A stretch of DNA of 64,000 nt, taken from the NCBI RefSeq assembly GCF_026151205.1, contig NC_087080.1, positions 4,810,797-4,874,796 on the forward strand, in the 5' to 3' direction. Made by a program: the position numbers and the translations under genes. This stretch comes from Bolinopsis microptera (lineage: Eukaryota). Each line of letters begins with the position of its first letter. Position 1 is the stretch's first letter. Below are positions 1-30,231 of this stretch, one piece after another. The notes under the pieces are model-generated. The model ran no database searches and was not told the origin of the DNA. It was given only the letters and a program-made list of their open reading frames with translations.

Positions 1-64
1 TATCTCATACAAATTTGCCAGTTCTGCAATTTATCTTATTCTGACAAGTTTATAGCAGCATAAA

Positions 65-382: not shown

Positions 383-390
383 AGTTTAAA

Positions 391-3081
391 ATGATTCAAC
401 TAAACTTAGTTTTGCAATATGACCAAATCGAGGCTATTTGGATCCATCTTACAGATTGCAATATTTTCATCTGCTGTTTCTACAGATCTGAGTTGTTTAG
501 TCCTCTTGACAAATTTTTAGATTATATGACAGACTGCATGATGAGTATAGGAAGTAAGAATGTTATTTGGCTGGGTGATGTAAATGTAGACCAAAACAAC
601 ATCAGCAGTATGAACTATAAGAAATTAGACATTACAATGAAAATGTTTGGAATGGTACAGGTAGTTCAGGATATTACCCGCATTGCTAAACTAGGAAACA
701 GAATCACAAAGACCACAATCGATGTTGTCATAACAAACACTTACTCCAAGTTTCTTGACTGCAAAGTCCTTGATGATTGTATAGGAGATCATCAGGTCGT
801 AAAGTTCATTGTCGATTTCAATGTGCATAAGGCCTCAAAATTCAAGAAGTTACTAATAAGAGATCACAGCACAATGAATGTTACTGCTCTTAAAGAATTT
901 TTGGAAACCTGTGATTATAGACCAATAATAGATTCAACTAGTCTGAATGATGCAGTTGATGGTTTAAACGAACATATTGATCACTACTATGATCACTTCT
1001 GTCCAATTAAACAAATTAAGTGCCATAGTGATTACATCCATAAGCCATCTCCAGAATTTTTAGAAAGTAAGAAATTGAAAGGGAAACTTTACCGTAAATT
1101 TTTAACACACAACAAGAACAGACGCATACATCCAAATGGTCTTATACACTGTAATAAATGTGACTCATTATGGATGGCATATAAACGGCAGAGAAACTAT
1201 TCAACCTATTTGTCTAGAATTAATAGGAAGACTAACTTAGCAACAGAACTGAAAGCCAAGTGTGCCATGAATGATCTAAAGGGTGTATGGAAAACGATAA
1301 AGACAGCATCAAATCTGCCTGTTAAAGCTAACAATATCAATAACAATCTTGATGCTGAAACCACCAATAAATATTTTGCTGAAATAGGTCCAAAGATCCA
1401 AGCAGAAGTGCAGCTGGAAAATGAAAATGAATTTCTATCTTATCTACAAAATGAGCAGATTGACAACGAGACCAGCTTGAATAGCTTTACTGAAATAACT
1501 GAGTCCAATATCTTAGACTATGTGGCAAGTATCCCTTGTAGCAAATCCACTAATGATCATATACCATTGAGAGTGTTTAGACAAATTTTACCTGCATTTA
1601 TTGCTCCATTAACACATCTTGTAAATTTGAGTTTATCCAGTGGCATCATGCCAAACAGCTGCAAGGTTGCAAAAATCACCCCAATCCATAAGGATGGTGA
1701 TACTGAGAATCCTAGTAATTATCGACCAATCTCAATTTTACCGATTCTTGGAAAGTGCATCGAATTTTGTGTGAACTCCCAACTGACTCAATATCTTGAT
1801 GAAAAGGGAATACTTTCAGAGCATCAATATGGTTTCCGTAAAGATCACTCTACAACTTATCTCATGTTAGATCTGTTTGATCGTATATTTACTGCTAAGA
1901 ACAGTGCCAAGCATCCTGCAATTATCTTCCTGGACATCAGAAAGGCATTTGATACTGTTAACCATGATATTCTCATTCAAAAGCTGAAGCATTATGGAAT
2001 AAAAGATACTGCATTGAGCTGGTTTAGGAGCTTCCTCACAGATAGATTACAGCAAACTAGAGTTGGGAGTAGGATAAGCAGTTTACATTCATTGAACTCT
2101 GGAGTGCCTCAAGGAAGTATATTAGGACCAATTCTATTCAGCATTTTTATCAATGACCTGCCTAATGCATGCCTATTTTCTAAACCTTATCTATTTGCTG
2201 ATGACGGTGCATTATATTTTGACAATATATCTAGAGGAAACTATGGTAACATCAAACAAGAGTTGAAATTAGTTATCAGATGGCTTCAGGCTAATAAACT
2301 ATCCCTGAATAATGAAAAAACAAAACTAATGATCCTTGACTCTAAGCCTAACCTTGATGCCATCCTTGTTGAAATTTGTGATGACCTTACTTTGGTAATC
2401 TGTGAAACTAAATCCCATAAGTACCTTGGACTTATAGTTGACAGCAGATTGACATTTAATGAACATATTGATAACATTAAGAAAAAGATATCCAAAAGAA
2501 TTGGTGCTATGTATAGATCAAAAAAACTTCTCCCTCTTAAGTTCAGGAAGATGTTTGCTAATGCACTTATGTTGCCACATTTTGACTACTTAGACACCAT
2601 CTGGTTAAGAACATATAAAAAACGACTAGGAGAGTTAGATATCATGTACAAAAAGGTTGCTAAAATAGCCCTAGATGTAAACATCAGAGAGAGGTCGGTT
2701 AATGTATACAAAAATATGGGATGGCTTCCTCTCCATTTGAGACGACAGGTTCATCTTAGCTCATATATGTACCGTATAATCAATGAAACATGTCCAAAGC
2801 ATTTTATCGGGAAATTCTCGTATATTTCTGGTGGATCACGTGAGGCAGAAAACTGCAATCTTTATACTCCTAAATCAAGATCTCACAAGGAGTTTAACTA
2901 TCTAGGAACTAAGGCCTGGAACATATTACCAAAGTCCCTTAGAGAGTGTGACGACGTTAAGAAATTTTCTAAGTTATACAAAGAAACTCTTATGAATATG
3001 TTGCTAACTGATGAGAATTACCAAGGGGATAACTCTTACGATAAATTCATGATCCCACCCAACACTAGCCAATGTATCTAG
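391..3081 (+). CDS. LINE ORF2: endonuclease C-terminal part plus reverse transcriptase
   Basis: An 896-aa ORF. RT blocks YRPISILPILGK, FRKDHSTTYL, FLDIRKAFDTVNHD, GVPQGSILGPILF, LFADDGALY. C-terminal tail LPHFDYLDTIW...CP. Confidence 0.9.
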   Translation: MIQLNLVLQYDQIEAIWIHLTDCNIFICCFYRSELFSPLDKFLDYMTDCMMSIGSKNVIWLGDVNVDQNNISSMNYKKLDITMKMFGMVQVVQDITRIAKLGNRITKTTIDVVITNTYSKFLDCKVLDDCIGDHQVVKFIVDFNVHKASKFKKLLIRDHSTMNVTALKEFLETCDYRPIIDSTSLNDAVDGLNEHIDHYYDHFCPIKQIKCHSDYIHKPSPEFLESKKLKGKLYRKFLTHNKNRRIHPNGLIHCNKCDSLWMAYKRQRNYSTYLSRINRKTNLATELKAKCAMNDLKGVWKTIKTASNLPVKANNINNNLDAETTNKYFAEIGPKIQAEVQLENENEFLSYLQNEQIDNETSLNSFTEITESNILDYVASIPCSKSTNDHIPLRVFRQILPAFIAPLTHLVNLSLSSGIMPNSCKVAKITPIHKDGDTENPSNYRPISILPILGKCIEFCVNSQLTQYLDEKGILSEHQYGFRKDHSTTYLMLDLFDRIFTAKNSAKHPAIIFLDIRKAFDTVNHDILIQKLKHYGIKDTALSWFRSFLTDRLQQTRVGSRISSLHSLNSGVPQGSILGPILFSIFINDLPNACLFSKPYLFADDGALYFDNISRGNYGNIKQELKLVIRWLQANKLSLNNEKTKLMILDSKPNLDAILVEICDDLTLVICETKSHKYLGLIVDSRLTFNEHIDNIKKKISKRIGAMYRSKKLLPLKFRKMFANALMLPHFDYLDTIWLRTYKKRLGELDIMYKKVAKIALDVNIRERSVNVYKNMGWLPLHLRRQVHLSSYMYRIINETCPKHFIGKFSYISGGSREAENCNLYTPKSRSHKEFNYLGTKAWNILPKSLRECDDVKKFSKLYKETLMNMLLTDENYQGDNSYDKFMIPPNTSQCI

Positions 3082-3299
3082 GCAGTTATGTTATTTCGGT
3101 TAAGTTATCTCAGTACATAAGTGAATCCAATCTATCCCCTGCAATCAAAGTATTTCCATGCCTATTAAGCTATTACAGGAAATTAGGAACATCAGTGGAA
3201 AGGTGCACTGTCAATCATTATTGCTCCATACCTCCAGTCCTCCTGTTATGTGCAATTCTCACTGTATGCTCCTCATTTGTATCAATTATATTGATGCTA

Positions 3300-3673: not shown

Positions 3674-3714
3674 TTATTTATTTATTTATTTATTTATTTA
3701 TTTTATGGAATATA
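3674..3714. repeat. (TTTA)n microsatellite
   Basis: tttatttatttatttatttatttattta. Confidence 0.9.
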
Positions 3715-4124
3715 GGTAATCCAAAGGGATTGACAGTATTAAGGCCAAAAGGTCTAAGAGAATTAAGCAAATGTATGTAGTTATTTTCTTTTACTTCAAG
3801 TGTACTGGGACTGCAATTCTCTAAAATAAAAGTTCTAAAAGTTTCATTAAAATCTGTATGTACTCCTAAACCGTGGTCAATCAAGTGAACCCCTAGGCTA
3901 TACTCATCACTAGTAATATCAAATGCTCTACCATCAACGATTTCATAAAATTTGGACCTGTGTCCGTCCATCCTTTTATGCAAGCTATTAATAGTCCTAC
4001 CCACATAGTTTTTCTTACAAATCGAACACTGTACAAGATAGATGATGTTATAGGTCTTGCAACAACCAGGGGCTGATTTGATCTTTTTGCGGGGCAGACA
4101 GAAGGGGCAGACAGAAGACATCAC
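3690..4124 (-). CDS. GIY-YIG endonuclease domain fragment, Penelope-like element EN module (truncated)
   Basis: A 144-aa ORF with a Cys cluster (CPFC...C) followed by NIIYLVQCSICKKNYVGRTINSLHKRMDGHRS (GIY-YIG). No RT lies upstream on this strand. Confidence 0.55.
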   Translation of the reverse strand: MMSSVCPFCLPRKKIKSAPGCCKTYNIIYLVQCSICKKNYVGRTINSLHKRMDGHRSKFYEIVDGRAFDITSDEYSLGVHLIDHGLGVHTDFNETFRTFILENCSPSTLEVKENNYIHLLNSLRPFGLNTVNPFGLPIFHKINK

Positions 4125-5893: not shown

Positions 5894-7914
5894 TTGTTAA
5901 ATTCAGAACTACATGTTAACGTCCTAAAAATAATTAATCATTAAATGTTCCGGATAGGAACATTTTTCTTTTTGAAAATATTCGTGTCCTTCCACAACCC
6001 CCTGTTACCTGTGTTTCTGTCGGGGTAGCCTAATTCATCCGTTAGAATCGCAGAGTTAGCGGAGCTCATGATATCTCACGACGTATGCTGCATGAACGGT
6101 GCAAGACTTGCGCCGTTTGTTTCAGCATCCAGTTGCGAGTGCTTGCCCATCGAAAACATGATTAGTGATTGTGGATTTTATTGATATTACTGATTATCCA
6201 TCATATTCAGTATTAATGTTATCCATTATTTATTTATTGACATCCTTCAGTCTCCAAAACGAGGTGTGAAGGTAAATTAACTTTGAGCCTTGTTTTGGCG
6301 ACTGCTTAATCGATGGGCAAGTAGGTATTTGTTTTTTAGCAGTGTTGAACATTGAAACAATTATAAAATGTTTATTTTTATCTTATATAACCAATAACGT
6401 ACAATATGAATGACATATGCTATAGTGACGTAACATATATAGTGCAAAGAATTAGTAACTTGCGAGATGTGATTTAGTGATAATCGACGTTAACATTTTG
6501 CAGTTTACAGTTGCACAATGTTGGCGTCGATTGTTACTAACATTTATCTGAATTTAATACAAGTACATGTCACATATAAATTGGGTAGCTGAATGAAACT
6601 CGTGCCTCAAAATTTTCCGTTATTAGCATTGCAGTGTCCACGCCCTATACTGCGTTAACGACCGAAATTTTCCCAATATGCAATTATTATTTTGCTTCTA
6701 AAATTCTCTGATAATTAATAATATATCGTGACATGTAATTGTAAGATAACAAACCTCGCGCGCGGCGCTTACATCTGCACCTGAGAATCTCTCAGCAATG
6801 TGTGGCTGTCTGCGCGGCGGGCTGTGTATTGTGTCTATAGCTGAATTTAAATTTAGATTTATTTGTAAATGTATAATAATATTAAATATGTATTGATTGT
6901 TTTGTGGTAAATAAAAATTTTGTTTTACTAATTTTGTTTTACTTTCCATTATTGAGACGTTTTAAATATTTGATTTAAGAGGTTTTTATTTTATTTTATA
7001 GGACTGGTTCACAGTGTGAACAGATTCCAGACTTATATATTTTTAAGTGATATTTAATAAATGATTAAAAGAACCAATTTTAAAGTTGCCATAGTAAAGT
7101 TGCCATAGTAAAGCCTTTAGGTCCAAAAATATACCCATTATGCTCACGTAAAAACAACTCTAAATCAGTAGGCTGTCACTCTATTAATGCACCACACCGC
7201 TTCCTCCACTGCACTAAAAGTTATACAATAAATTCTACAATCCTAATTTTGTATCGTGATGGAGACCGGTGTCCATACAAAAATTTTACTAGGTTGCCGT
7301 TTGGTGTGAGCAATAGCGAACAGCACGAACACTCCTTTGCCCCGTCAACCTATATCTAATCTATTTAAAGAGTGACAACCATACTACACATTGAATTAGG
7401 ATTCCTTTAAATATCAAATTGATTTATTGTAAACTTGTTTACTCTGTAATAAATGGCATAAAATTGAATTTTTGTTTAACTGAATTTTTGTTTGATTATG
7501 TTTGCGTTTCATTGCTCAACAGCTGTTCGAAGGATCAAATATAAGAATTTTTGTTTAACTGATTTAACTATAACACCATATATTTCCTCACATTTTGTCA
7601 GAACTTCCCAACTATTCCATGGTCCTAATTTCAATCGAGATGGATCACTTACATTTTCATGATCTGGAAAACAGCATTCCTTTGCCTCTTCTACAATTTA
7701 TCATGTATATCATTAGGTGGCCCATGTGTGTCATTTTTGTAAAATTGCTGTAAAATCTTTATTTAATATTCTAATCGCTATCTTTATCTATTTATATATG
7801 TATTTTAGCCGTATCTCTATTAATTATCTTTAAACTCCTCTCCGCTCGCCTCCCGTGTGAAACGTGCGCGCCTGCACGCTGCAGTGAGTGGCGCGAAAGC
7901 ACATGGTTAGGTTA

Positions 7915-9685
7915 AGGCGCGTGTACTGTTGCTGCACAGGCTAAAATATATGTTAATTGACAATGTCAATTCATCGCAGCTCGGCGAGGCACAGTAGCGC
8001 ATTTCACCGATTTAGCGTTGCAAGAAGCATAATCAATAATTGAATGCGCGGCGCGGCACAGTAACGCATCGTGCTACAAGCTATAATATTTATAAACATA
8101 CTCATTGGAGAATGGAGCTATGGAGGAATTTGTATCACGTTGTGACACCCACGGTCGTCCTGACGATACAGGGGGAGCCGCGCACTTCGTGCGCGGCGGG
8201 TGATACAACGTATGACAAGGAGGAATGAAGCTGCCTACTGCGCGTGCTGTAGAATGACAGGCTGAGCGCTGCCAAGTATTGCATATTGAAGCGTGTACGC
8301 CGACGCACGACAGGCGAGCTCCTGTGTAGTGTGTCCTGGGATTGTGCGCGAAGATCGAAATGCAATTCGTGTATCAAGCCAACTGCCAAGTGCCAACAAT
8401 TTGTTTATCGTTATAAATGATAATGGACTAACCAGTTTCGGGATACTTCGTAGCAACTAGCAAGCTTGCCGCGCATCGATCCAATAATGCTTCTCGTCGT
8501 AAGGCCACCTTACGACGTAAATGTTTGTCGTTAGATGTAGGCAAAATGCACCCGGCACCCCTGCGGACCTCGCTGAGCTGCTATGCAAAGCGAAAAAGCA
8601 AAAACTCAATGGATGGTTAGTGGTTACCCGTACCGTAATGGGTGCCACATGCCTAGCATGAAATATTTACTTACTTACTTGCACTTAATTTGTGTATTAT
8701 ATGTTCATAATCATATAAATTCGGCGGAATGACAGGCTTGAGGCTGAGCGCGGCCCAGTAAACTTCGCATCGAAAAATTTAAACGAGTAACATCCGTCAA
8801 CTAATTAGTAGAGGCTCTTACGGGCAAAAAGACGTGTTTTTTGCTACGAGTTTAGAGACCTAACCGCTAATTGGACACAATAGTATGATGTCTAAGGATC
8901 GATAATATGTTAAGAAGTATAAATTTGGCCTTATTCGTCACGTGCTATACCAATGCGCGTTTTAAACTTTGACAGTCTATTAATCTAAGGCAAATAGATT
9001 AATTATATTCATATTTTGTCAGCAATAAGATCACATTATTTTCTATTTGGTGTGAAAATATGAGCTAGAACGGACATAATCGCGCTGAGTTATAGCTGTT
9101 TGAAATTTATGATGAACGCGCGGGTGCCAATTGATAACAACTAAATGCTTTTGCGCGTAGTGCGCGTCGAAAATTTGGCAAAAACGCTTGCGGAGTGACA
9201 ATATTCAAACTTCGATAAAGTATATGAAGTGGGTACTTCTCGGAAAGGAAAAATTTAGGCAAACACGATGTGACTATTTTTGAGTTGATTTAATACAACT
9301 GCAAAAAATTATTCAAACTTCAAGCAAAAAAGTCAAAATTTTTACCACTTTTTTGGGTTTTTGCCTGCACTAAAATAGAGGGATTTTTAAAATTTTTTAA
9401 CCATCTTGTGTGGCTGTCTTTTAGCTACCTTCATGCAAATTTTGCCGAAATGCCAACAAAATTAACTTGCTCAAATTATCAAAAAACATGCTTTTTTGGC
9501 CTATTTTTGGCCCCAAAATCGGTTTTTTGCAATTTTAACGGTGCTAACTCAGTCCAATCATTTTGAAACTACTTTTAATCGATTCTACGGTCAAAAATAC
9601 GTCTAGTAAGGTGTATCTGGGGTCCCTAGCGTATCGAGCAGACAATGCCCGTAAGAGCCTCTACTAAATAGTTATATGTAATTTG
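7915..9685. repeat. Left arm of outer inverted duplication (pairs with 19637-21385)
   Basis: ORFs at 8040-8228(+), 8135-8389(-), 8235-8456(-) and 8457-8648(-) translate to the same proteins as 21100-21288(-), 20939-21193(+), 20872-21210(+) and 20680-20871(+). The flanks of the included MITE are reverse complements of each other. Confidence 0.85.
8808..9664. mobile_element. MITE-A copy 1 (Tc1/mariner-like nonautonomous element, TA target duplication)
   Basis: Terminal inverted repeats GTAGAGGCTCTTACGGGCA ... TGCCCGTAAGAGCCTCTAC, flanked by TA on both sides; about 857 bp. Confidence 0.75.
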
Positions 9686-10180
9686 ACCAAAACCCATAAT
9701 CATGGGTAGAGTGGACCGCTGCCAGTGTCTCTCTTTCCCAAACAAAAGGAAATGATATTAATTTGATTGACCGTTCTCAAATGCAAAATGATACCGAGAA
9801 TGAAATCGGTCGCTCGCTTTTCCCATTCATTCACGGCTTTCGAATTGTAATAAGTTTCGATTGATTATATCAATCAGATGCTGTAAAAATCTCTTTGGGT
9901 TGCGTTCGGGTCGATACCTAGTATTTCGGGGTAAGGGTGGTAGTTACTACTACTGAAGTTTATTGAATCTTTATTGCCGAGTACAGCTGCTTTTGGGTAG
10001 TTTTTCTTAGTCTATTACAATTGTAAATGAATGGGAAAAGCGAGCGACCGATTTCATTCTCGGTATCATTTTGCATTTGAGAACGGTCAATCAAATTAAT
10101 ATCATTTCCTTTTGTTTGGGAAAGAGAGACACTGGCAGCGGTCCACTCTACCCATGATTATGGGTTTTGGTCAAATATCA
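9683..10180. repeat. Hairpin (foldback) element: ~150-bp inverted arms around a ~190-bp loop
   Basis: 9690-9835 aaaacccataatcatgggtagagtggaccgctgccagtg... is the reverse complement of 10025-10175. Confidence 0.8.
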
Positions 10181-11639
10181 TCTATTTTTGATTATTATAT
10201 AATGTCAGGGTACTTTATAAAGTCGAAATATAAACTGATATCTTCATTAATAAGGAGGAAGTTTCAACGATTTCGAAATTTTTCTTTTAAAAACATTTCC
10301 TTGTGTTTAGGTAAGCATATCGGTCGATCACTGACTGAATATGCCACTTCATACTCATTCAAGTTGGCATTAAATTCATATATAATGACATTAAACTGTC
10401 GTGGCAAAGCAGAATTTGTTGGAAATCACGAATGAGCAAAATTCTCACCTTTCGCGCGTGCAAACTTTGAGCGGACGTTGCGTGCGCATCCAATATTGAA
10501 TCGCCGTAAATTTTTGCATGTAATTGTTTTATATATAGTTTGATAAGCATGCAAAGTTTCAAAGTATTTCAAGAAGAATTGTAATCACAACGGCACTCTA
10601 AAGTTGACAGAAAATGACGAAAACAGCAATTTTCAGTGATTTTAGCGATTTTCTATCAATTTGGGCGTGTCCCCACGTGTGCAACTTTTCGATTTTTAAC
10701 TTTAAAACTAGCCTAATGCACAATTTATACCTATAGGAAGCAGAACTGAGCTCCACAACTCAAGGCATGGCCCAACACCAGAGAATACTAAATCGCAAAA
10801 TTGACGTTTTTATAAAAAAATTCTTCAAAAAAGCACAAACTTCAATGACGAATATCTTTATGAAGGAGCAAGCTAGAAAAACTTTCCGGTAGATTTTCAG
10901 AATGCTTAAACAATTATCTAAGGTAAAAATTTCCTCAGATTTTGAATACAATTACTTTTTAATGGTGTAAAATCATTTTTAAAAGTTATTACTTTGTCAA
11001 AAATCAAGTTTTAAAAACGGTTAACTTGATGACGTCATCAAAGGGTGTTCATGACGTCAAATAATTTGTTTATACAATGTAAACTAAAGTGTAAACAATT
11101 ATTTTCAAGACCTGTGGTCGGAAATGGCTGTATCTTTTATACTTTTGAATCTATGGACAATTAAATACAGGCTACAATTGACTGGCAAAGCGTCTATCCC
11201 TGAATATATGTATATGTATATGTATGTATGTATGTATCACGACAATCTGTCGTAAAACAGGGGTTCTAGAAAACCCACTTCCCGATGGTCCTGAAACCTG
11301 AAACTTTTTTTGCAATCGATTTGGTCAACGTCTAGACGCCCTGAAAAATTTCAGATCTCCAACTCAATTTTAACATGGTTTTTAAAGCACCTGAATATGG
11401 CGAGTTTGGGTTTTTTACCGAATTTCGTATAACAGTGCTGGCGAGTATTTTATGCAAATTTCTTAAAAATCTCAACATAACTATTTTTTATTCCTGTCAT
11501 CTTTGGCATCAAATTAGAATGTTTTGAACTAAAATAAATCTGCTGAACGACTTCCGATGAGTCTTAATGTCTGAAAAACACCTGCCGCCTCCGGCCGGAG
11601 TGCACGCTTCGCGTGCACGAAAGAGGCTTGTAACGTGTA

Positions 11640-11712
11640 CCAAAGAGGGTATAATAGCAAAGGGGGTATAATAGTAAAGGGGGTATAATAGTAAATGGGG
11701 TACATAGTATAC
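11640..11712. repeat. 17-bp tandem repeat x4 (aagggggtataatagta)
   Basis: Direct reading of the sequence. Confidence 0.8.
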
Positions 11713-12030
11713 CCACAATAAATGCAACGGTCGTGCTTGCCAGCACTGTGATAATTAAAAACAAACTTTGCTTGTTTACCTGAAATTAGAATTTTATACA
11801 ATTAATGTAAGATTGAAGTCGTGTTTTTACCAATTTCCCTGCACCATCCGGTAAATTTATTACCCTCAGCCCTTCGTTGTGGGCTGCGCGGTCGTATCGT
11901 GGCTTTCGCCACGGTATAGCGGGGGCGAAATGAAATACAAATGAGGATCGCGACGCGTGACTTGTAGGTTTATAACCTACCAGGACGCGCGCCGAGTTGG
12001 ACTCGTCGACGGAGTATTTTTAAAACTGGT

Positions 12031-12447
12031 AAAGTTATTCCTATTTACAAGAAAGACAATAAGGAATGTGTTGAAAACTATCGGCCTGTATCAATATTAC
12101 CTTTATTTGGAAAAATTTTCGAGAAGATCATTTACAAACGGCTCTATAATTTCTTCACATCTAAAGGTGTATTGACAGACTCACAGTTTGGATTTAGAAA
12201 AGGTCATTCCACCACTCATGCTCTACACAAATCTATAGACTCCGTTACAAAGACTCTAGCTGGCAATAAACATGTCTTAGGAATATTCATTGACTTAAGC
12301 AAAGCCTTCGACACCCTTGACCACAACATTCTTCTAAGCAAGTTAAACTCCTATGGTATTAGGGGCACAGCACTTACCCTACTTAAAAGCTATTTGACTA
12401 ACAGTATGTTATGTATAACGATGTACCATCAGAAACAATGGATGTGA
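12031..12447 (+). CDS. LINE RT N-terminal part (frame 0), start truncated
   Basis: KVIPIYKKDNKECVENYRPVSILPLFGKIFEKIIYKRLYNFFTSKGVLTDSQFGFRKGHSTTHAL...IFIDLSKAFDTLDHNILLSKL. Confidence 0.75.
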   Translation, partial: KVIPIYKKDNKECVENYRPVSILPLFGKIFEKIIYKRLYNFFTSKGVLTDSQFGFRKGHSTTHALHKSIDSVTKTLAGNKHVLGIFIDLSKAFDTLDHNILLSKLNSYGIRGTALTLLKSYLTNSMLCITMYHQKQWM

Positions 12448-13529
12448 AATTTGGGGTACCACAGGGGTCAATTCTAGGGCCATTACTCTTTCTACTGTAT
12501 ATGAACGATATAGTGAACTGTTTTTCAGACAGTGAGGTGAAATTTGTACTTTATGCTGATGACACTAATATCTTTATATCAGGACCATCTAGAGAAGCAA
12601 CATACAAAAAAGCAAACTTAGTTCTTAAACATGTGTCGATTTACATGAAATGTAATCTACTCCATATCAATATGTCTAAATGTTGCTACATCCATTTTAA
12701 ACCTGCCTCTGAATATGATGAGACCTGTGCAAGGACCAGACCATTTGCTAACCTGCTAGATGAGTCTAGGTCAATATTCATCGATGGTAAGGTTATTACT
12801 AAAGTCAAGGATACCAAATTCCTAGGTATTGTTATAGATAGTAAGTTAAACTGGGCTGCCCATATGCACTACATTCGTAAAAAACTTCGGTCCATGACTG
12901 GTGCAATCTGTAGAATTCGACACTCGATACCTGGTGAACTATATTTGAAAATATATAATGCTCTCTTTGAATCACATCTCAGTTATGGTATAAGTGTTTG
13001 GGGCGTTGTCCTTAAAGAACGATCAAATGACAGTATTTTTATCACACAGAAGCACTGTGTAAGGATCCTTTTTGGTGATCTCGACTCATATTTAGATAAA
13101 CAATCAACATGTGCACGTACTAGACCGTATGGTATGCAAAAATTAGACCATAAACACTTTGAAAAGGAGCATACAAAACCCATTTTTAATAGACTAAAAA
13201 TTCTAACGGCTCAAAACTTGTACAAATATCACTGCATTTTAGAATTCTCTAAGATTATCAAGTACCACTGCCCCTACTCCCTTTATGAGGCCATCAACAT
13301 TTCAAACCGTGCAACAAGTCTAAATGTTATTCTTCTAAATAAATCAAATACCTTTTTGTTTAATGCAGCCAAGCTTTGGAACACAGTTCATAAAAAAATT
13401 TTAACTTCAAGCAATTGCCTAGAAACTTCCATTAACTTGATAAAATTGAGAACCAAAGCACTATTAGTACAATCACAGGCAGCCGACTTAAAAGATACCT
13501 GGACTCCAACCAATTTTAAATTGCAGTAA
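12411..13529 (+). CDS. LINE RT C-terminal part (frameshifted relative to the upstream segment)
   Basis: GVPQGSILGPLLFLLYMNDI, YADDTNIFI, LHINMSKC and a C-terminal tail; a 372-aa ORF. Confidence 0.8.
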   Translation: MYNDVPSETMDVKFGVPQGSILGPLLFLLYMNDIVNCFSDSEVKFVLYADDTNIFISGPSREATYKKANLVLKHVSIYMKCNLLHINMSKCCYIHFKPASEYDETCARTRPFANLLDESRSIFIDGKVITKVKDTKFLGIVIDSKLNWAAHMHYIRKKLRSMTGAICRIRHSIPGELYLKIYNALFESHLSYGISVWGVVLKERSNDSIFITQKHCVRILFGDLDSYLDKQSTCARTRPYGMQKLDHKHFEKEHTKPIFNRLKILTAQNLYKYHCILEFSKIIKYHCPYSLYEAINISNRATSLNVILLNKSNTFLFNAAKLWNTVHKKILTSSNCLETSINLIKLRTKALLVQSQAADLKDTWTPTNFKLQ

Positions 13530-14651
13530 TTAAATTGCACATGCAGCGGCACACACCTAATATTACTATCATGATTGAACTATAAGCTGTTAAGCTTTCA
13601 GATCCATTTTTAACCACTTGATGTAATTTTTTTAATAATTAAATATTTTATTTTACAAATTTATATCAGATCGAACCTATATTTGATAATCGAACCTATA
13701 TTCGATAGTTAAATTTATGCGATAAATTGATATTGATATTATTATTGTTGAGTGAAGTTAACTCCTGAGATAAATTTTATTAATTTTTAACAAAGGGACT
13801 TGGAGTATAAACGACCAAGTTCGCATAAATGCCTACCCAACCAAGAATTTAGGAGGCAAGGGTGGGTGCGTAAACTTTACGGTCTGCACTCTCCGATCCT
13901 GTATCACCCTGGATTCTTTTTGACGTATTTTTGTAATAGGTATATACCTTTATCCATTCTCTTGCTACTCCAAGTCCCCTAAGATATCTGGTAAAAAGGT
14001 CCTGCTAGTTATATATAAAATATATTTATGTTTGCTTTAATTGATACTAAATAAAATTGTTGTTTTCTTGAAATTGTTGTTTTCTTGGTCCTGATTAATA
14101 TTTGAAGCAAATATTTTACGACTACAAGTATCACCTGTTAAAGAAAAGATTGGAAATTAAACTCGCCGGTACGTCGACGGATGATGCTTGTCTAAATTTG
14201 TTCGAAGTAACACGCGCAACTTTCTTTTCGAAGCGAAATGTCTGTGTTACTGGGCGGCGCTCAGCCTGTGCCTTTTCAATTTCAATGTCATTCCGCAACC
14301 GTTTATCATTTACGAACGAATAAAAACAACGTCAATATTTTACATGTCACAGTTAGCTGGCAGTACGGCCCAGTTGATAAATTGTGCATCGCGCCGATCT
14401 AGCAAAAAAACATTATTTGATGCGCTGATCAGTCTCCTAAGACTAATAATATAAAACATCGTTTCTTTTGTCCGTAATTGCCTGTACTGCGTGAGAATTA
14501 CAAAATAATTACAGCACATTTACAAAATAAGAATAATGAAAAAGTAAACGTGTTTTCTCGGTTATAATTCATAATTATTTTTATAATAACGCTTTATTGT
14601 TAATGCAATCATAGTGGTCAGCTTGTGACATGGCTATGACGCCTTTTTCTT

Positions 14652-14836
14652 ACATGGTTATGACATGGTTATGACATGGTTATGACATGGTTATGACATG
14701 GTTATGACATGGTTATGACATGGTTATGACATGGTTATGACATGGTTATGACATGGTTATGACATGGTTATGACATGGTTATGACATGGTTATGACATGG
14801 TTATGACATGGTTATGACATGGTTATGACATGGTTA
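14652..14836. repeat. 11-bp tandem array (catggttatga)n, about 17 units
   Basis: Direct reading. The inverted counterpart is at 17898-18213. Confidence 0.9.
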
Positions 14837-17800
14837 CAACCAAAACTCCTTCAGACCAATTTTGAACCATTATGAGCACTTTCAGGATACAATTCATTTC
14901 CGTTCATTTCCGTTCATTCTATGAACCTGGGTCATTTTGTGCGACCTTCGATGACCTCTTATCTAGGCCTAGCTTATGACACTATCTATCATAGAAAACC
15001 GAATTGGGGGTTCCCAGCCCTTACGTAATAAGTCTCAAATTGAAATGACACACATGCGCCACCTATTGATTTACATGATAAACCTGCTAGCGCATGTGTG
15101 TCAAAAAAAATAATGATACACATGCGCTTCCTAGGTAGCGCATGTGTGTCAAAAAAAATAATGATACACATGCGCTAGCAGGTTTATCATGTAAATCAAT
15201 AGGTGGCGCATGTGTGTCATTTCAATTTGAGACTTATTACGTAAGGGCTGGGAACCCCCAATTCGGTTTTCTATGATAGATAGTGTCATAAGCTAGGTCC
15301 AGAGGTCCTCAAAAGTCGCAAAAAATGACCCAGGTTCATAGAATGAACGGAAATGAACGGAAATGAACGGAAATGAACGGAAATGAACGGAAATGAACGG
15401 AAATGAATTGTATCCCAAAATTGCTCATAATGGTTAAAAATTGGTCTGAAGAGTTTGGTTGGTCCTAGGACCACCCTAGCAAATTTTGGGAATTACTATT
15501 TAGATTTTTGGTACCATTTCGAAGACATGAGGACATCGTAGTATTCACTGTATTTGAGTGCTGGGAAGCATTAATTCGGTTTTCTTCCCAGCGCTCAAAT
15601 ACAGCTTATACTTCGATGTCCCGGGTCCCCATGGCCATATATAATGTATAATGAGGCTATTATTATAGCCCCATGGATCCCTTCGTCCCCAAAATTTGCT
15701 GGAGTGGTCGTAGGACCAACCAAAACTCCTTCAGACCAATTTTGAACCATTATGAGCACTTTCAGGATACAATTCATTTCCGTTCATTTCCGTTCATTCT
15801 ATGAACCTGGGTCATTTTGTGCGACTTTCGATGGTCTTTAGGCCTAGCTTATGACACTATCTATCATAGAAAACCGAATTGGGGGTTCCCAGCCCTTACG
15901 TAATAAGTCTCAAATTGAAATGACACACATGCGCCACCTATTGATTTACATGATAAACCTGCTAGCGCATGTGTATCATTATTTTTTTGACACACATGCG
16001 CTAGCAGGTTTATCATGTAAATCAATAGGTGGCGCATGTGTGTCATTTCAATTTGAGACTTATTACGTAAGGGCTGAGAACCCCCAATTCGGTTTTCTAT
16101 GATAGATAGTGTCATAAGCTAGGTGTCATAAGTCCTAGAGGTCATCGAAAGTCGCACAAAATGACCCAGGTTCATAGAATGAACGGAAATGAACGGAAAT
16201 GAATTGTATCCCAAAATTGCTCATAATGGTTAAAAATTGGTCTGAAGAGTTTGGTTGGTCCTAGGACCACCCTAGCAAATTTTGGGAATTACTATTTAGA
16301 TTTTTGGTACCATTTCGAAGACATGATGACATCGTAGTATTCACTGTATTTGAGTGCTGGGAAGCATTAATTCGGTTTTCTTCCCAGCGCTCAAATACAG
16401 CTTATACTTCGATGTCCCGGGTCCCCATGGCCATATATAATGTATAATGAGGCTATTATTATAGCCCCATGGATCCCTTCGTCCCCAAAATTTGCTGGAG
16501 TGGTCGTAGGACCAACCAAAACTCCTTCAGACCAATTTTGAACCATTATGAGCACTTTCAGGATACAATTCATTTCCGTTCATTTCCGTTCATTCTATGA
16601 ACCTGGGTCATTTTGTGCGACTTTCGATGGTCTGTAGGCCTAGCTTATGACACTATCTATCATAGAAAACCGAATTGGGGGTTCCCAGCCCTTACGTAAT
16701 AAGTCTCAAATTGAAATGACACACATGCGCCACCTATTGATTTACATGATAAACCTGCTAGCGCATGTGTATCATTATTTTTTTTGACACACATGCGCTA
16801 GCAGGTTTATCATGTAAATCAATAGGTGGCGCATGTGTGTCATTTCAATTTGAGACTTATTACGTAAGGGCTGAGAACCCCCAATTCGGTTTTCTATGAT
16901 AGATAGTGTCATAAGCTAGGTGTCATAAGGCCTAGAGGTCATCGAAAGTCGCACAAAATGACCCAGGTTCATAGAATGAACGGAAATGAACGGAAATGAA
17001 TTGTATCCCAAAATTGCTCATAATGGTTAAAAATTGGTCTGAAGAGTTTGGTTGGTCCTAGGACCACCCTAGCAAATTTTGGGAATTACTATTTAGATTT
17101 TTGGTACCATTTCGAAGACATGATGACATCGTAGTATTCACTGTATTTGAGTGCTGGGAAGCATTAATTCGGTTTTCTTCCCAGCGCTCAAATACAGCTT
17201 ATACTTCGATGTCCCGGGTCCCCATGGCCATATATAATGTATAATGAGGCTATTATTATAGCCCCATGGATCCCTTCGTCCCCAAAATTTGCTGGAGTGG
17301 TCGTAGGACCAACCAAAACTCCTTCAGACCAATTTTGAACCATTATGAGCACTTTCAGGATACAATTCATTTCCGTTCATTTCCGTTCATTCTATGAACC
17401 TGGGTCATTTTGTGCGACTTTCGATGGTCTGTAGGCCTAGCTTATGACACTATCTATCATAGAAAACCGAATTGGGGGTTCCCAGCCCTTACGTAATAAG
17501 TCTCAAATTGAAATGACACACATGCGCCACCTATTGATTTACATGATAAACCTGCTAGCGCATGTGTATCATTATTTTTTTTGACACACATGCGCTACCT
17601 AGGAAGCGCATGTGTATCATTATTTTTTTTGACACACATGCGCTAGCAGGTTTATCATGTAAATCAATAGGTGGCGCATGTGTGTCATTTCAATTTGAGA
17701 CTTATTACGTAAGGGCTGGGAACCCCCAATTCGGTTTTCTATGATAGATAGTGTCATAAGCTAGGCCTAGATAAGAGGTCATCGAAGGTCGCACAAAATG

Positions 17801-17897
17801 ACCCAGGTTCATAGAATGAACGGAAATGAACGGAAATGAATTGTATCCTGAAAGTGCTCATTATGGTCCAAAATTGGTCTGAAGGAGTTTTGGTTGT
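14837..17897. repeat. About 3.8 tandem copies of a 797-bp unit, each made of nested long palindromes
   Basis: The identical 60-aa ORF MNCILKVL... recurs at 15595, 16391 and 17188, a period of 796-797 bp. Each unit holds ~250-bp inverted arms (aaccgaattgggggttcccagccc...gacacacatgcgc) and a second palindrome centred on ggtcctaggacc. Confidence 0.85.
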
Positions 17898-18213
17898 AAC
17901 CATGTCATAACCATGTCATAACCATGTCATAACCATGTCATAACCATGTCATAACCATGTCATAACCATGTCATAACCATGTCATAACCATGTCATAACC
18001 ATGTCATAACCATGTCATAACCATGTCATAACCATGTCATAACCATGTCATAACCATGTCATAACCATGTCATAACCATGTCATAACCATGTCATAACCA
18101 TGTCATAACCATGTCATAACCATGTCATAACCATGTCATAACCATGTCATAACCATGTCATAACCATGTCATAACCATGTCATAACCATGTCATAACCAT
18201 GTCATAACCATGT
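17898..18213. repeat. 11-bp tandem array (catgtcataac)n, about 29 units; reverse complement of the 14652 array
   Basis: Direct reading. The two arrays differ in length (about 185 vs 316 bp). Confidence 0.9.
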
Positions 18214-18596
18214 AAGAAAAAGGCGTCATAGCCATGTCACAAGCTGACCACTATGATTGCATTAACAATAAAGCGTTATTATAAAAATAATTATGAATTA
18301 TAACCGAGAAAACACGTTTACTTTTTCATTATTCTTATTTTGTAAATGTGCTGTAATTATTTTGTAATTCTCACGCAGTACAGGCAATTACGGACAAAAG
18401 AAACGATGTTTTATATTATTAGTCTTAGGAGACTGATCAGCGCATCAAATAATGTTTTTTTGCTAGATCGGCGCGATGCACAATTTATCAACTGGGCCGT
18501 ATTGCCAGCTAACTCAAACTGTGACATGTAAAATATTGACGTTGTTTTTATTCGTTCGTAAATGATAAACGGTTGCGGAATGACATTGAAAATAGG

Positions 18597-19197
18597 GCGT
18601 GCACCATAAAAATAAACTTGCTCGGATTTTAAAAATTTTTGTACCATTGTTTTCTAGAGACTGTGAGAATTTTCACAATACCAAATTTGTCATACCTTTT
18701 TGGAAAGATCAGTGAGTTTCGCCTAGGTGCCATATTTGATGGTGCGCGGCTTTTGGAGCAAAATTAGCTGTAAAAGTCGCGTAATTTGACCAAATTTGAC
18801 CAAATTCGTTGATTTTTGTCGTATTATTTGGATATATCTTCAGTTCCTTGAATGAGATCATTCTGAAAATTGGCGACGACCTTCCAATAGGGCTTTCACA
18901 ACTGTCCGAAAAATTTGGTGGATATCGGAGTTGATATAGTAATCAAAATGGGGCAAAATACGCTGCTTTTAGCTGTTACATAATGTTTGATGGTTGGATA
19001 TGCTTCAAACTTTTCGGACACTTTCCTTGTAAGTCTATCAGTAAGCTTACCAATTTTTGTTGCAATCGGAGGTCGGGAAGGATACTTAATATCTATTTGT
19101 TTGAAGAAAATTGTGCTGGCCGAAATTAGCGCTAAAAAACCATCCTACAGTCGGTACGCGCGGCTCACTGTCGATGGCGCACTACCTATTGAAAAGG
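18597..19197 (+). mobile_element. R2 nonautonomous element copy 1 (hAT-like: TAGGG terminus, 7-8-bp target duplication), inserted in the right arm only
   Basis: Right arm: cattgaa|aatagggcgtgcacc...ggcgcactacct|attgaaaaggcac. The left arm (reverse complement) reads cattgaaattgaaaaggcac with no insert. Confidence 0.7.
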
Positions 19198-19636
19198 CAC
19201 AGGCTGAGCGCCGCCCAGTAACACAGACATTTCGCTTCGAAAAGAAAGTTGCGCGTGTTACTTCGAACAAATTTAGACAAGCATCATCCGTCGACGTACC
19301 GGCGAGTTTAATTTCCAATCTTTTCTTTAACAGGTGATAATTGTAGTCGTAAAATATTTGCTTCAAATATTAATCAGGACCGTCGACGAGTCCAACTCGG
19401 CGCGCGTCCTGGTAGGTTATAAACCTACAAGTCACGCGTCGCGATCCTCATTTGTATTTCATTTCGCCCCCGCTATACCGTGGCGAAAGCCACGATACGA
19501 CCGCGCAGCCCACAACGAAGGGCTGAGGGTAATAAATTTACCGGATGGTGCAGGGAAATTGGTAAAAACACGACTTCAATCTTACATTAATTGTATAAAA
19601 TTCTAATTTTAGGTAAACAAGCAAAGTTTGTTTTTA

Positions 19637-21385
19637 ATTATTACATATAACTATTTAGTAGAGGCTCTTACGGGCATTGTCTGCTCGATACGCTAGGGAC
19701 CCCAGATACACCTTACTAGACGTATTTTTGACCGTAGAATCGATTAAAAGTAGTTTCAAAATGATTGGACTGAGTTAGCACCGTTAAAATTGCAAAAAAA
19801 CCGATTTTGGGGCCAAAAATAGGCCAAAAAAGCATGTTTTTTGATAATTTGAGCAAGTTAATTTTGTTGGCATTTCGGCAAAATTTGCATGAAGGTAGCT
19901 AAAAGACAGCCACACAAGATGGTTAAAAAATTTTAAAAATCCCTCTATTTTAGTGCAGGCAAAAACCCAAAAAAGTGGTAAAAATTTTGACTTTTTTGCT
20001 TGAAGTTTGAATAATTTTTTGCAGTTGTATTAAATCAACTCAAAAATAGTCACATCGTGTTTGCCTAAATTTTTCCTTTCCGAGAAGTACCCACTTCATA
20101 TACTTTATCGAAGTTTGAATATTGTCACTCCGCAAGCGTTTTTGCCAAATTTTCGACGCGCACTACGCGCAAAAGCATTTAGTTGTTATCAATTGGCACC
20201 CGCGCGTTCATCATAAATTTCAAACAGCTATAACTCAGCGCGATTATGTCCGTTCTAGCTCATATTTTCACACCAAATAGAAAATAATGTGATCTTATTG
20301 CTGACAAAATATGAATATAATTACTCTATTTGCCTTAGATTAATAGACTGTCAAAGTTTAAAACGCGCATTGGTATAGCACGTGACGAATAAGGCCAAAT
20401 TTATACTTCTTAACATATTATCGATCCTTAGACATCATACTATTGTGTCCAATTAGCGGTTAGGTCTCTAAACTCGTAGTATAGCAGAAAACACGTCTTT
20501 TTGCCCGTAAGAGCCTCTACTAATTAGTTGACGGATGTTACTCGTTTAAATTTTTCGATGCGAAGTTTACTGGGCCGCGCTCAGCCTCAAGCCTGTCATT
20601 CCGCCGAATTTATATGATTATGAACATATAATCCACAAATTAAGTGCAAGTAAGTAAGTAAATATTTCATGCTAGGCATGTGGCACCCATTACGGTACGG
20701 GTAACCACTAACCATCCATTGAGTTTTTGCTTTTTCGCTTTGCATAGCAGCTCAGCGAGGTCCGCAGGGGTGCCGGGTGCATTTTGCCTACATCTAACGA
20801 CAAACACTTACGTCGTAAGGTGGCCTTACGACGAGAAGCATTATTGGATCGATGCGCGGCAAGCTTGCTAGTTGCTACGAAGTATCCCGAAACTGGTTAG
20901 TCCATTATCATTTATAACGATAAACAAATTGTTGGCACTTGGCAGTTGGCTTGATACACGAATTGCATTTCGATCTTCGCGCACGATCCCAGGACACACT
21001 ACACAGGAGCTCGCCTGTCATGCGTCGGCGTACACGCTTCAATATGCAATACTTGGCAGCGCTCAGCCTGTCATTCTACAGCACGCGCAGCAGGCAGCTT
21101 CATTCCTCCTTGTCATACGTTGTATCACCCGCCGCGCACGAAGTGAGCGGCTCCCCCTGTATCGTCAGGACGACCGTGGGTGTCACAACGTGATACAAAT
21201 TCCTCCATAGCTCCATTCTCCAATGAGTATGTTTATAAATATTATAGCTTGTAGCACGATGCGTTACTGTGCCGCGCCGCGCATTCAATTATTGATTATG
21301 CTTCTTGCAACGCTAAATCGGTGAAATGCGCTACTGTGCCTCGCCGAGCTGCGATGAATTGACATTGTCAATTAACATATATTAT
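19637..21385. repeat. Right arm of outer inverted duplication
   Basis: Reverse complement of 7915-9685; see the left arm. Confidence 0.85.
19658..20520. mobile_element. MITE-A copy 2 (inverted duplicate of copy 1 within the outer palindrome)
   Basis: Same TIRs and TA flanks. Its flanking sequence is the reverse complement of copy 1's flanks. Confidence 0.75.
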
Positions 21386-21424
21386 CACTCCTGCGCGCAG
21401 TGTTGTGACCTCCCTTCGTCGTAA

Positions 21425-22025
21425 TTAGTAGGTAGTGCGCCATCGACAGTGAGCCGCGCGTGCCGACTGTAGGATGGTTTTTTAGCGCTAATTTCGGCCA
21501 GCACAATTTTCTTCAAACAAATAAATATTGAGTATCCTTCTCGACCTCCAATTGCAACAAAAATTGGTAAGCTTACTCATAGACTTACAAGGAAAGTGTC
21601 CGAAAAATTTAAAGCATATCCAATTAACAAACATTATGTTACAGCTAAAAGCAGCGTATTTTGCCCCATTTTGATCACTATATCAACTCCGATATCCACC
21701 AAATTTTTCGGACAGTTGTAAAAGCCCTATTGGAAGGTCGTCGCCAATTTTCAGAATGATCTCATTTAAGGAACTGAAGATAAATCCGAATAATATGACA
21801 AAAATGGTCAAATTTGGACGAATTTGGTTAAATTACGCGACTTTTACAGCTACTTTTGCTCCAAAAGCCGCGCACCATCAAATATGGCACTTAGGCGAAA
21901 TTCACTGATCTTTCCAAAAAGGTATGACAAATTTGGTATTGTGAAAATTCTCACAGTCTCTAGAAAACACTGGTACAAAAATTTTTTTAAATCCGAGCAA
22001 GTTTATTTTTATCGTGCACCTCCTA
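21425..22025 (-). mobile_element. R2 copy 2 (inverted orientation)
   Basis: Reverse complement of copy 1: ...ggaggtgcacgataaaaataaacttgctcgg...gatggcgcactacct. Flanked by ctaatta on both sides (7-bp target duplication). Confidence 0.65.
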
Positions 22026-22953
22026 TAATTAGCTCGTATTCAGATTGAACAATTTTGAAGTCAAATAAATGTTGTTTCTTTTAGACTTAAATAAACAATA
22101 TGGATGTAGTCCGAAAGTAATTTGTCTACTAAATAACATTTTGAAACTATGAACAAAATTGGCGAAAATTTGCCGTAGATGTGACCAAAAAACTACGCGC
22201 AGAACTAAATATTTCTTCATAGACGCGTGAAAATTTTTGAGTTTAACATTGAATATTTTAGCTTGGTTATTGTAATACTTAATTTTCAAGTCTCTATCCG
22301 ATAACTAAATATTTTATCTTTACGACAGTATAAAATTTGTTTGTATATTTGCTAAATTAAAAAAACAGTAGGAATAGAAACGTCGAAGGTCTTGCGCTTA
22401 TTTCAGTCCCAAAATATACTCTAATCATAAACTTCATAAAACCCACTGAAAATGATGTCTACAGGCATATTAAGCCCTTACACCTTCCCAAATCATTTAG
22501 CAAGGATTCAGAGCCAGTTTTTAAAATTAGCTTTCGAATATCATTGTTAAGACATAAAACTATAAATAAATGAGTGCCCTTTTTCTCTTTCGTCTCGATA
22601 GTTTCTCTTTCATTTTAACATTATACATTAGTAAAAGCAATCAGCGATCTTTATTAATCATTGAAAGAGTAGAGTAATTGGTCCTCGTCAATGTTTAGTG
22701 TCTGATTACAGTTTCGGTCCGACCTCCAAAACTGAAAAGATATTGGGGGTATTATCAGTTATGTAAATGGAAAAATTATATTTGCATCATAAAACTATGA
22801 AAACATTGAAACTAATGTTTTTGAAGGCTCGCCTATTCGTTTAAGCAATCAAATAGTCAGTGCATGCACAGTAAAGAACAGTTGAAGGCACCGGGAATGT
22901 TTCAAATATAACCTCTGTCTACTATCAAGTATCAGACCACACACTCCACTATA

Positions 22954-23811
22954 GTAGAGGCTCTTACGGGCATTGTCTGCTCGATACGTTAGGGACCCCA
23001 GATACACCTTACTAGACGTATTTTTGACCGTAAAATCGATTGAAAGTGGTTTCAAGATGATTGGACTGATTGTTCTGGGGTAAAATCGCAAAAAAACCGA
23101 TTTTTGGGCCAAAAATAGGCCAAAAAACCATGTTTTTTGATATTTTGAGCAAGTTAATTTTGTTGGCATGTCGGCAAAACTTGCATAAAGATAACTAAAA
23201 GACAGCCGCACAAGATTGTATAAAAATAAAACAAATCCCTCTATTTGTTCTGAGGTAAAAATCCAAAAAAGTGGTAAAAATTTTGACTTTTTTGCTTGAA
23301 GTTTGAATAATTTTTTGCAGTTGTATTAAATCAACCCAAAAATAATCACATCGTGTTTGCCTAAATTTTTCCTTTCCGAGAAGTACCCACTTCATATACT
23401 TTATCGAAGTTTGAATATTTTCACTCCGCAAGCGTTTTTGCCAAATTTTCGACGCGCACTACGCGCAAAAGCATTTAGTTGTTATCAATTGGCACCCGCG
23501 CGTTCATCATAAATTTCAAACAGCTATAACTCAGCGAGATTATGTCCGTTCTAGCTCATATTTTCACACTAAATAGAAAATAATGTGATCTTATTGCTGA
23601 CAAAATATGAATATAATTACTCTATTTGCCTTAGAGTAATAGACTGTCAAAGTTTAAAACGCGCATTGGTATAGCACGTGACTAATGAGGCCAAATTTAT
23701 ACTTCTTAACATATTATCGATCCTTAGACATCATACTATTGTGTCCAATTAGCGGTTAGGTCTCTAAACTCGTAGCAGAAAACACGTCTTTTTGCCCGTA
23801 AGAGCCTCTAC
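22954..23811. mobile_element. MITE-A copy 3 (independent insertion)
   Basis: Same 19-bp TIRs, flanked by TA...TA in a different genomic context (ccactaTA|gtagagg ... cctctac|TActatcc). Confidence 0.75.
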
Positions 23812-24019
23812 TACTATCCACTATGTACTATAATGTACAATGGCAATTAAAATGTGTTCCCGCAATTTTAAAATGCGCGCATCTTGCGCCGTGACCATGA
23901 CGGTCACAGCGCATGCTGGTGAACGGAGGTAGGCTGGTGAACGAGTTATTGGGACAAAATTGGAACATTTTGGAACATTGGTTACATCGGTTGTAGACAT
24001 GCAGTGATTCCCAAACTTG

Positions 24020-24170
24020 GTTTGAGTGGTCCTAGGACCAATCTAAACGCTTTCCGGCCAGTTTTAAACCGTTCTGAGCACTTTTAGTTTTAGGAGAATA
24101 TTAATTTTTGTTCATTTTCGTGCATTCCATGAACCTGGGTAATTTTCATGCTCATTGGAATTTAGAAGGT
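24020..24170. repeat. Diverged fragment of the 797-bp palindromic-unit family
   Basis: ggtcctaggaccaatctaaacgctttccggccagttttaaaccgttctgagcactttt...cattccatgaacctgggtaattttc resembles ggtcctaggaccaaccaaaactccttcagaccaattttgaaccattatgagcactttcagg...cattctatgaacctgggtcattttg. Confidence 0.55.
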
Positions 24171-30220: not shown

Positions 30221-30231
30221 TTTCTATCCGT

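Follow-up and report, generated by a model that had tools for sequence, protein, structure and literature searches.

A 64-kb stretch of Bolinopsis microptera DNA (contig NC_087080.1), referred to as the window and serving as the basis of all coordinates, was found to contain a palindrome of 13,432 bp between positions 7948 and 21379. Two long inverted arms, inverted arrays of an 11-bp satellite, a pair of mirrored modules and a central tandem array make up this structure, and the arms carry miniature inverted-repeat transposable elements (MITEs) and a long interspersed nuclear element (LINE). The palindrome is likely to be a single non-autonomous class II DNA transposon of the foldback type, with very long terminal inverted repeats (TIRs). 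Flies, nematodes, sea urchins and plants are known to harbor elements of this kind.

Arms and central array of the palindrome

The window was compared with itself by inverted-repeat and self-BLAST analyses. Every large inverted repeat detected fell in the palindrome region. When the window was shuffled 10 times, exact inverted matches reached at most 14-20 nt; the real arms are of kilobase scale. The outermost pair, 7945-9682 and 19640-21383, forms a 1,744-bp inverted repeat with 99.2% identity. An earlier interpretation made from the letters alone (the sequence-only reading) had likewise described the outer arms as near-perfect reverse complements, and its coordinates were reproduced to within about 30 bp, its left start at 7915 lying that much too far out. 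The left arm (+ strand) opens with the outer segment, 7948-9682, which starts at the terminus (A)TATGTTAATTGACAATGTC... and pairs with the right arm. It continues with a second segment, 11751-12012, belonging to a 266-bp pair (11747-12012 and 19380-19645, 99%), and with the inner unique segment, 14087-14651, which pairs with 18214-18592 and 19189-19381. The inner pairing as a whole joins 14087-14280 with 19188-19381 and 14280-14836 with 18029-18591. The right arm (- strand) consists of the first part of the inner unique segment, 18214-18592, which pairs with the left arm, and of an uninterrupted stretch, 19189-21379, that begins in the inner unique segment and reaches the terminus. It is continuous from the satellite to the terminus except for one MITE, and the left arm is interrupted twice.

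The sequence-only reading had divided these arms between an inner foldback element (14088-19370) with unique termini of its own and a separate outer palindrome enclosing it. The inner pairing stands, but the supposed termini do not: 14087 and 19381 are the points at which the LINE split the left arm and not ends of an element, because the right arm runs through uninterrupted. Furthermore, the partner segment 19380-19645 directly adjoins both the right end of the 'inner' palindrome (19381) and the right arm of the 'outer' one (19640). Because the pair 11747-12012/19380-19645 bridges both, the two constitute one palindrome, and a diverged fragment at 60689-60780 also spans the 14087/19381 point. 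A nested pair of elements is therefore ruled out.

Three insertions, each confined to one arm, were identified at 9683-11750, 12013-14086 and 18593-19188, and their subtraction leaves one palindrome of about 8.7 kb with the same outer ends. The first, 2,068 bp in length, is present only in the left arm and is flanked by AT on either side; the right arm is continuous at this point (...TATATGTAATAATTAAAAAC...). The second, also private to the left arm, is a 5'-truncated non-long terminal repeat retrotransposon (the LINE, 2,074 bp, + strand), which was recognized from its reverse transcriptase domain and from its junctions relative to the right arm. RVT_1 matches were obtained with Pfam for two open reading frames (ORFs), 11968-12444 and 12402-13526, lying in two frames. 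The 3' end of the LINE is formed by two tandem copies of the 17-mer AAATTGTTGTTTTCTTG, as found by Tandem Repeats Finder (TRF), and both of its junctions show GG microhomology when compared with the uninterrupted right arm. The third insertion is a 596-bp MITE in the right arm. When these insertions were excluded, the arms, about 2.57 kb each, aligned with 2,551 matches, 14 mismatches and a few small indels (99.5%). Three of the 14 mismatches are flank positions (7941-7944) that were included in the aligned segments, which leaves 11 substitutions. The bridging pair, the three one-arm insertions and the empty site described below had not been seen in the sequence-only reading. At the left edge of the 2,068-bp insertion there is a 492-bp palindromic MITE (9683-10174), which has 162-bp arms of 98% identity and is also flanked by AT.

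Inside the arms lie the arrays of the 11-bp satellite ACATGGTTATG, in which TRF found 100% matches. The left array (14652-14836, + strand) has 16.8 units and the right array (17897-18213, - strand), its reverse complement, has 28.8 units; the inverted, unequal arrays described earlier were thus confirmed, and both are perfect. They are followed by an innermost mirrored domain, identified by mirror pairing, with the palindromic module P1 on the left (14837-15367) and module P4 on the right (17366-17896), both in the long-core form. The segments 14626-15367 and 18105-17366 match at 97.5% in the mirror orientation and at 92.4% in the direct orientation.

Over the middle 2 kb, the mirror image gives way to a direct tandem array, the units of which are double hairpins. 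Self-comparison delimited this domain, with its TTCATTTCCG runs, to 15368-17365 (1,998 bp, + strand). The segments 15382-16800 and 16178-17597 are 99.7% identical in the direct orientation, a 796/797-bp period extends over 15382-17597, and all three 'link' centers are in the + orientation. The count of about 3.8 tandem units of 797 bp given previously holds over 14837-17896 if the first unit, which is more diverged, is included together with the last part. The sequence-only reading had also regarded the units as palindromes in themselves. Each unit does fold as two adjacent long hairpins (-361 kcal/mol versus -79 kcal/mol for shuffles, z = -63), but the arms of each unit are only about 91% self-complementary. 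Likewise, the palindrome center placed at about 16.36 kb can be taken only as approximate, given the direct array that occupies it. The (TTCATTTCCG)n runs are short within the units and have grown to 6.6 copies at 15342-15407 (TRF). Pieces of the central unit were found elsewhere in the window, namely a long-form core at 28870-29003 (94%) and a fragment of about 78% identity at 24003-24146; therefore, the module belongs to an older dispersed repeat. A structure of this kind would be expected to form hairpins or cruciforms and to be prone to recombination.

In the domain nomenclature of Tetris and related foldback elements, each arm consists of a 2.57-kb flanking domain, in which the 860-bp MITE is already nested, of an outer domain formed by the 11-bp tandem repeats (17 versus 29 units) and of an inner mirrored module of about 530 bp, and the arms enclose the 2-kb middle domain of direct 797-bp tandem units. 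Leaving aside the intruding LINE, the arms and center contain no ORF longer than 120 aa, and no credible Pfam match was obtained for any of their ORFs. Rfam gave nothing in the palindrome region. Because the element has no coding capacity, it is non-autonomous.

Empty site, nested MITEs and probable arm-to-arm copying

A paralogous copy of the host repeat was found at 28610-28909 (- strand). It is colinear with 7697-7947 and 21380-21426, the two flanks of the palindrome, and lacks the 13.4-kb element. The longer match covers 259 bp at 95% identity and the shorter one 47 bp at 96%, with an overlap of 6 bp between them (28651-28656). At the empty site the sequence is GGC-TATAAT-CACTCC, and at the filled site it is GGC-TAAAAT|ATATGTTAATTGAC...GTCAATTAACATA|TATTAT-CACTCC. 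The paralogous empty site, which joins both flanks directly, shows that the whole structure entered an older dispersed repeat as one discrete insertion. For the same reason, a mobile element is favored over the local amplification hotspot that the sequence-only reading had offered as its other possibility.

Comparison of the two sites yields TAAAAT at 7942-7947, immediately before ATATGTTAATTG..., and TATTAT at 21380-21385 as candidate left and right target-site duplications (TSDs), corresponding to TATAAT in the empty site. The most parsimonious interpretation is that the target duplication is probably 6 bp and degenerate. A TSD of TA or of zero length for the large element is less consistent with the symmetric termini and the empty site. 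The same sequence, (A)TATGTTAATTGAC..., is found at both ends, so that the termini read (A)TATG...CATA(T). In addition, the direct repeat GGCACAGTARCGCAT occurs twice within the first 130 bp of the left arm (7988-8002 and 8055-8069). Subterminal repeats of this kind are often transposase binding sites, and by analogy the GGCACAGTARCGCAT repeats are perhaps putative transposase recognition sites. The host repeat (28870-29003 and 7697-7750) and the central module of the element have in common a hairpin-rich core of about 50-130 bp, TGACACACATGCGC..., which hints at common ancestry or a shared building block.

The sequence-only reading had placed a MITE in each outer arm, and both were located. 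The left copy (8807-9666, 860 bp) has the TIR TAGTAGAGGCTCTTACGGGCA and the 3-bp TSD AAT; it was delimited by comparison with its mirrored copy in the right arm (19656-20522) and with a solo copy at 22952-23813 (94%, TSD CTA). The 3-bp flank is identical in the two arms. The 596-bp MITE, which was delimited by comparison with the left arm, begins its TIR with TAGGG and is flanked by the 7-bp TSD TTGAAAA. Other copies of its family lie at 21429-22025 (TSD TAATTAG) and 61698-62319 (TSD ATTGGAG), so that the TSD is 7 bp in all three copies in the window. A Helitron-style insertion of this MITE, considered because of an apparent zero-length TSD, is ruled out by these duplications.

The right arm reads TTGAAAA-[596-bp MITE]-TTGAAAA at 18586-19195. 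At the mirrored position of the left arm, 14273-14285, the MITE is absent and the sequence is TTTTCAA+TTTCAA, or TTGAAA+TTGAAAA when read from the other strand, which amounts to the two TSD copies with 1 nt missing. Because all three copies of the MITE have 7-bp TSDs, this sequence is typical of the footprint expected from a cut-and-paste excision, and it implies recent cut-and-paste activity in the genome by a 7-bp-TSD transposase. Independent insertions of MITEs at exactly mirrored sites are implausible. These observations strongly suggest that both MITEs were already in place when copying from one arm to the other occurred, and that the 596-bp MITE was later excised from the left arm.

Alternative explanations and comparison with known foldback elements

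Several observations weigh against a mobile foldback element. The putative TSD is imperfect, TAAAAT and TATTAT each matching TATAAT of the paralog at five of six positions; the junction is AT-rich and self-complementary, and a TSD of 0-2 bp is also possible, so that the overall range is 0-6 bp. A second copy with the termini of the element was not found in the 64-kb window. Exact-match scans gave no match for the terminus 23-mer in metagenome contigs and none for the 23-mer of the P core or the 28-mer of the conserved GC hairpin in prokaryotic genome contigs. Two 11-mer units, scanned against metagenome contigs, matched only two of them (L003 and L004), which share a short 11-mer run and are otherwise unrelated. 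The lack of the termini in the metagenome contigs suggests, weakly, that the element does not belong to a high-copy family. Moreover, no transposase partner was identified that could place the element in a superfamily or show it to be mobile.

The single copy in the window and the imperfect TSD would also suit a palindrome formed in situ, by local inverted duplication through fold-back priming, template switching or hairpin-capped break repair, in which case the locus would be a rearrangement or amplification hotspot and not a mobile element. The nested MITEs common to the arms point the same way, since they show that one arm was copied from the other, as a fold-back duplication would yield. 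However, the empty-site paralog puts both outer boundaries at the same terminal sequence in flanks that are otherwise contiguous, and a local inverted duplication is not normally expected to restore such a clean two-sided junction. Sequences related to the arm motifs and the central module, at 24003-24146, 28870-29003 and 60689-61442, further indicate that the components belong to dispersed repeat families. Formation in situ is therefore unlikely. A composite or macro-transposon is also rather improbable, in which two inverted MITE-bearing elements of about 2.6 kb, mobilized together or inserted head to head, would bracket the satellite and tandem block. The arms do have defined outer termini and subterminal repeats, and the middle is a direct tandem array instead of a mirror image. 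However, the mirror symmetry extends unbroken along the unique arm, across the 11-bp arrays and over the first and the last of the 530-bp modules. An inner terminus, which would mark a separate element of about 2.6 kb, is not visible, and solo copies of such an element are absent from the window. In practice, this composite could hardly be distinguished from a foldback transposon.

Long-read assembly is known to fail at palindromes of this size, and a chimeric or hairpin read or a mis-join could in principle have produced a false one. A fold-back artefact would be a perfect mirror, whereas these arms differ by one-arm insertions of 2,068, 2,074 and 596 bp, by 12 satellite units (17 versus 29), by 11 substitutions and by several small indels. 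In addition, the center is a direct tandem array, and the repeat that extends into both flanks is contiguous in the paralog. An assembly artefact is accordingly very improbable. The palindrome is thus almost certainly real, with a clear history of insertion and decay, and a single foldback-type transposon is the preferred interpretation.

The foldback-like structural class was taken as drawn in Casals 2005 and in the Tetris paper. The architecture proposed by the sequence-only reading, with long inverted arms, inverted unequal short-satellite arrays and a repetitive middle, agrees with this class: most of the element consists of TIRs (2.57-kb net arms, the satellite and the 530-bp module on each side, 97.5-99.5% identical), and the TIRs include a tandem-repeat domain of variable copy number, the inverted 11-bp arrays of 16.8 and 28.8 units. 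The description of the element as novel was overstated, as Tetris, the long-TIR copies of Galileo and Tm1 are closely similar published elements.

Tetris, a foldback transposon of Drosophila virilis, has TIRs with flanking, tandem-repeat and inner domains around a non-coding middle, few complete copies, no known transposase partner and TSDs of 8-10 bp (Dias et al. 2014, PMC4079207). The present element is likewise non-autonomous, with very long TIRs of flanking, variable-copy tandem-repeat and inner domains and a non-coding middle, a likeness of structure for which no similarity of sequence is expected. Unlike Tetris, in which the repeats are about 220 bp, it has 11-bp repeats and a 797-bp middle array; its TSD is about 6 bp or less, compared with 8-10 bp, and its arms are longer (2.57 kb net before the satellite). 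Copy 112 of Galileo in D. willistoni, a 9-kb, TIR-only element, has TIRs of 4.2 and 4.7 kb with unequal tandem repeats and with fragments of other transposable elements in both; the TIRs of Galileo grow by repeat expansion and by recruiting internal sequence (PMC4168063). Galileo belongs to the P superfamily and has TSDs of 7-8 bp with the consensus GTATTAC, also given as GTANTAC (PMC4168063). Unequal tandem repeats between the arms and transposable element fragments in both arms are shared with the long-TIR copies of Galileo. In contrast, the best TSD here is 6 bp and TATAAT-like, and no GTANTAC was found at the junctions.

Tm1, a Mutator/Foldback element of root-knot nematodes, has composite TIRs that vary in length and include short internal repeats; it has non-autonomous, MITE-like members, other inverted-repeat elements are inserted within it, and its TSDs are of 8-10 bp, usually 9 (PMC3169594). 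Composite TIRs, internal short repeats and nested inverted-repeat insertions are features that the present element shares with FB and Tm1, but most of each of its arms is unique sequence and its TSD is shorter. The arms of FB were reportedly described by Potter in 1982 as consisting nearly entirely of tandem repeats. The flank/empty-site overlap of at most 6 bp falls short of the TSDs of 8-10 bp in the Mutator/Foldback group (FB, Tm1 and probably Tetris). Given the TSD of about 6 bp, membership in either Mutator/Foldback or Galileo/P is not supported. This copy, having no coding capacity, encodes neither the MULE-type transposase of autonomous Mutator/Foldback members nor the THAP-domain P-like transposase of Galileo/P. 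The TU elements of sea urchins, on which Liebermann et al. are said to have reported in 1983, have long inverted repeats with an outer unique domain, inner tandem repeats of about 15 bp and a variable middle. This is a marine-invertebrate foldback family with the same order of outer unique and inner short-repeat domains. A Polinton/Maverick element was considered on account of the 6-bp TSD, the long TIRs and the 13-kb size. These elements, according to what Kapitonov and Jurka reportedly described in 2006, carry genes for a protein-primed polymerase B, an integrase and capsid proteins and end in 5'-AG...CT-3'. No such ORFs or Pfam matches were found in the palindrome, and its termini are (A)TATG...CATA(T); the assignment was rejected.

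Under the interpretation as a foldback transposon, the older dispersed repeat would have received the element as a unit, with a duplication of probably about 6 bp. Its mobilization in trans, by cut-and-paste, would have depended on a transposase encoded elsewhere that recognizes the termini common to both ends, (A)TATGTTAATTGAC..., and possibly also the GGCACAGTARCGCAT repeats in subterminal position. Before or after its arrival, sequence may have been copied from arm to arm through gene conversion or hairpin-templated synthesis, a process by which the arms could have grown and been homogenized; arm-to-arm copying would explain why the same nested MITE and the same site of the 596-bp MITE occur in both arms. 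Afterwards, the short arrays may have changed in length through slippage or unequal exchange. The single-arm differences would have arisen from the 2,068-bp insertion, the truncated LINE and the retention versus excision of the 596-bp MITE. Since a TSD of about 6 bp fits neither Mutator/Foldback (9 bp) nor Galileo/P (7-8 bp), the element might be the first representative seen of a long-TIR lineage that is unclassified and resides in a cosmopolitan marine eukaryote, with a TSD of about 6 bp, arms possibly under active homogenization by arm-to-arm copying, and 797-bp units and 11-bp arrays possibly seeding satellite DNA or yielding hairpin RNAs for small-RNA pathways; we consider this unlikely.

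This one locus records its own history in the empty site, the nested MITEs in both arms, the footprint, the one-arm insertions and the unequal arrays, and it illustrates how very long inverted arms grow and remain almost identical. By itself, the locus opens no new biological question. Foldback elements give rise to inversions, deletions and fragile sites, and satellite DNA can be seeded by them. For annotators and assemblers, a real 13-kb palindrome at this locus serves as a warning.

Other features of the window

Short (30-92 bp) colinear matches to arm motifs were found at 60689-61442 and 62359-62398, beside the third copy of the 596-bp MITE, and they include a 43-nt identical GC-rich hairpin, GGACCGTCGACGAGTCCAACTCGGCGCGCGTCCTGGTAGGTT. 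These segments may represent a decayed relative of the element or a shared sequence module. The region 60689-62398 was rejected as a second full copy of an arm, as only the 30-92-bp colinear motifs match and the inverted structure is absent there.

Another LINE occupies 1-3154. Close relatives of it (92% nucleotide identity) are present in contigs of many marine metagenomes, among them North Sea, TARA and SOLA samples (loci L001 and L005-L014), and in these relatives the upstream ORF has an AlkB-like 2OG-Fe(II) oxygenase domain (PF13532). An AlkB-like domain is unusual for ORF1 of a LINE. A 313-bp tandem repeat lies within 29151-31078 (TRF array 29167-30205; at least 3.3 units, 90%), and in one metagenome contig of ENA (L005) the same repeat, with 76-82% identity, also adjoins this LINE family. 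Both the LINE and the 313-bp satellite thus recur among marine metagenome contigs, an indication that the host is a widespread marine eukaryote. A 144-aa ORF at 3690-4124 (- strand) has a GIY-YIG-like motif (YLVQC...KNYVGRT) and no match in Pfam; judged by eye, it resembles the endonuclease of Penelope-like retroelements.

The segment 31489-35211 starts with a G37 homopolymer, followed by (GGACATAGGC)n and by a pyrimidine-rich low-complexity block of the TCC/CCTCAG type of about 3.2 kb. This block has a GC content of 60% and a GC skew of -0.67, ends in 10-, 20- and 40-bp repeats and is strongly strand-asymmetric; the tract could form a triplex (H-DNA). At 56694-57510, a 24-bp repeat is present 34 times and reads through on the + strand as an acidic (DGDAEEET)n ORF. 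It may be a repetitive exon of a multi-exon + strand gene that also includes EGF-like exons at 44.6-45.3 kb and 55.5-55.9 kb. A search with the concatenated candidate host exons (40-56 kb) returned no homologue, and exact look-ups of three ORFs of the window gave no record. The sole Rfam/ARAGORN match in the window is a tRNA-Arg(TCG) at 53552-53625 (- strand), far from the element. Further tandem repeats are a 40-bp minisatellite at 43890-44272 (9.7 units) and a 61-bp repeat at 26505-26684 (3 units).

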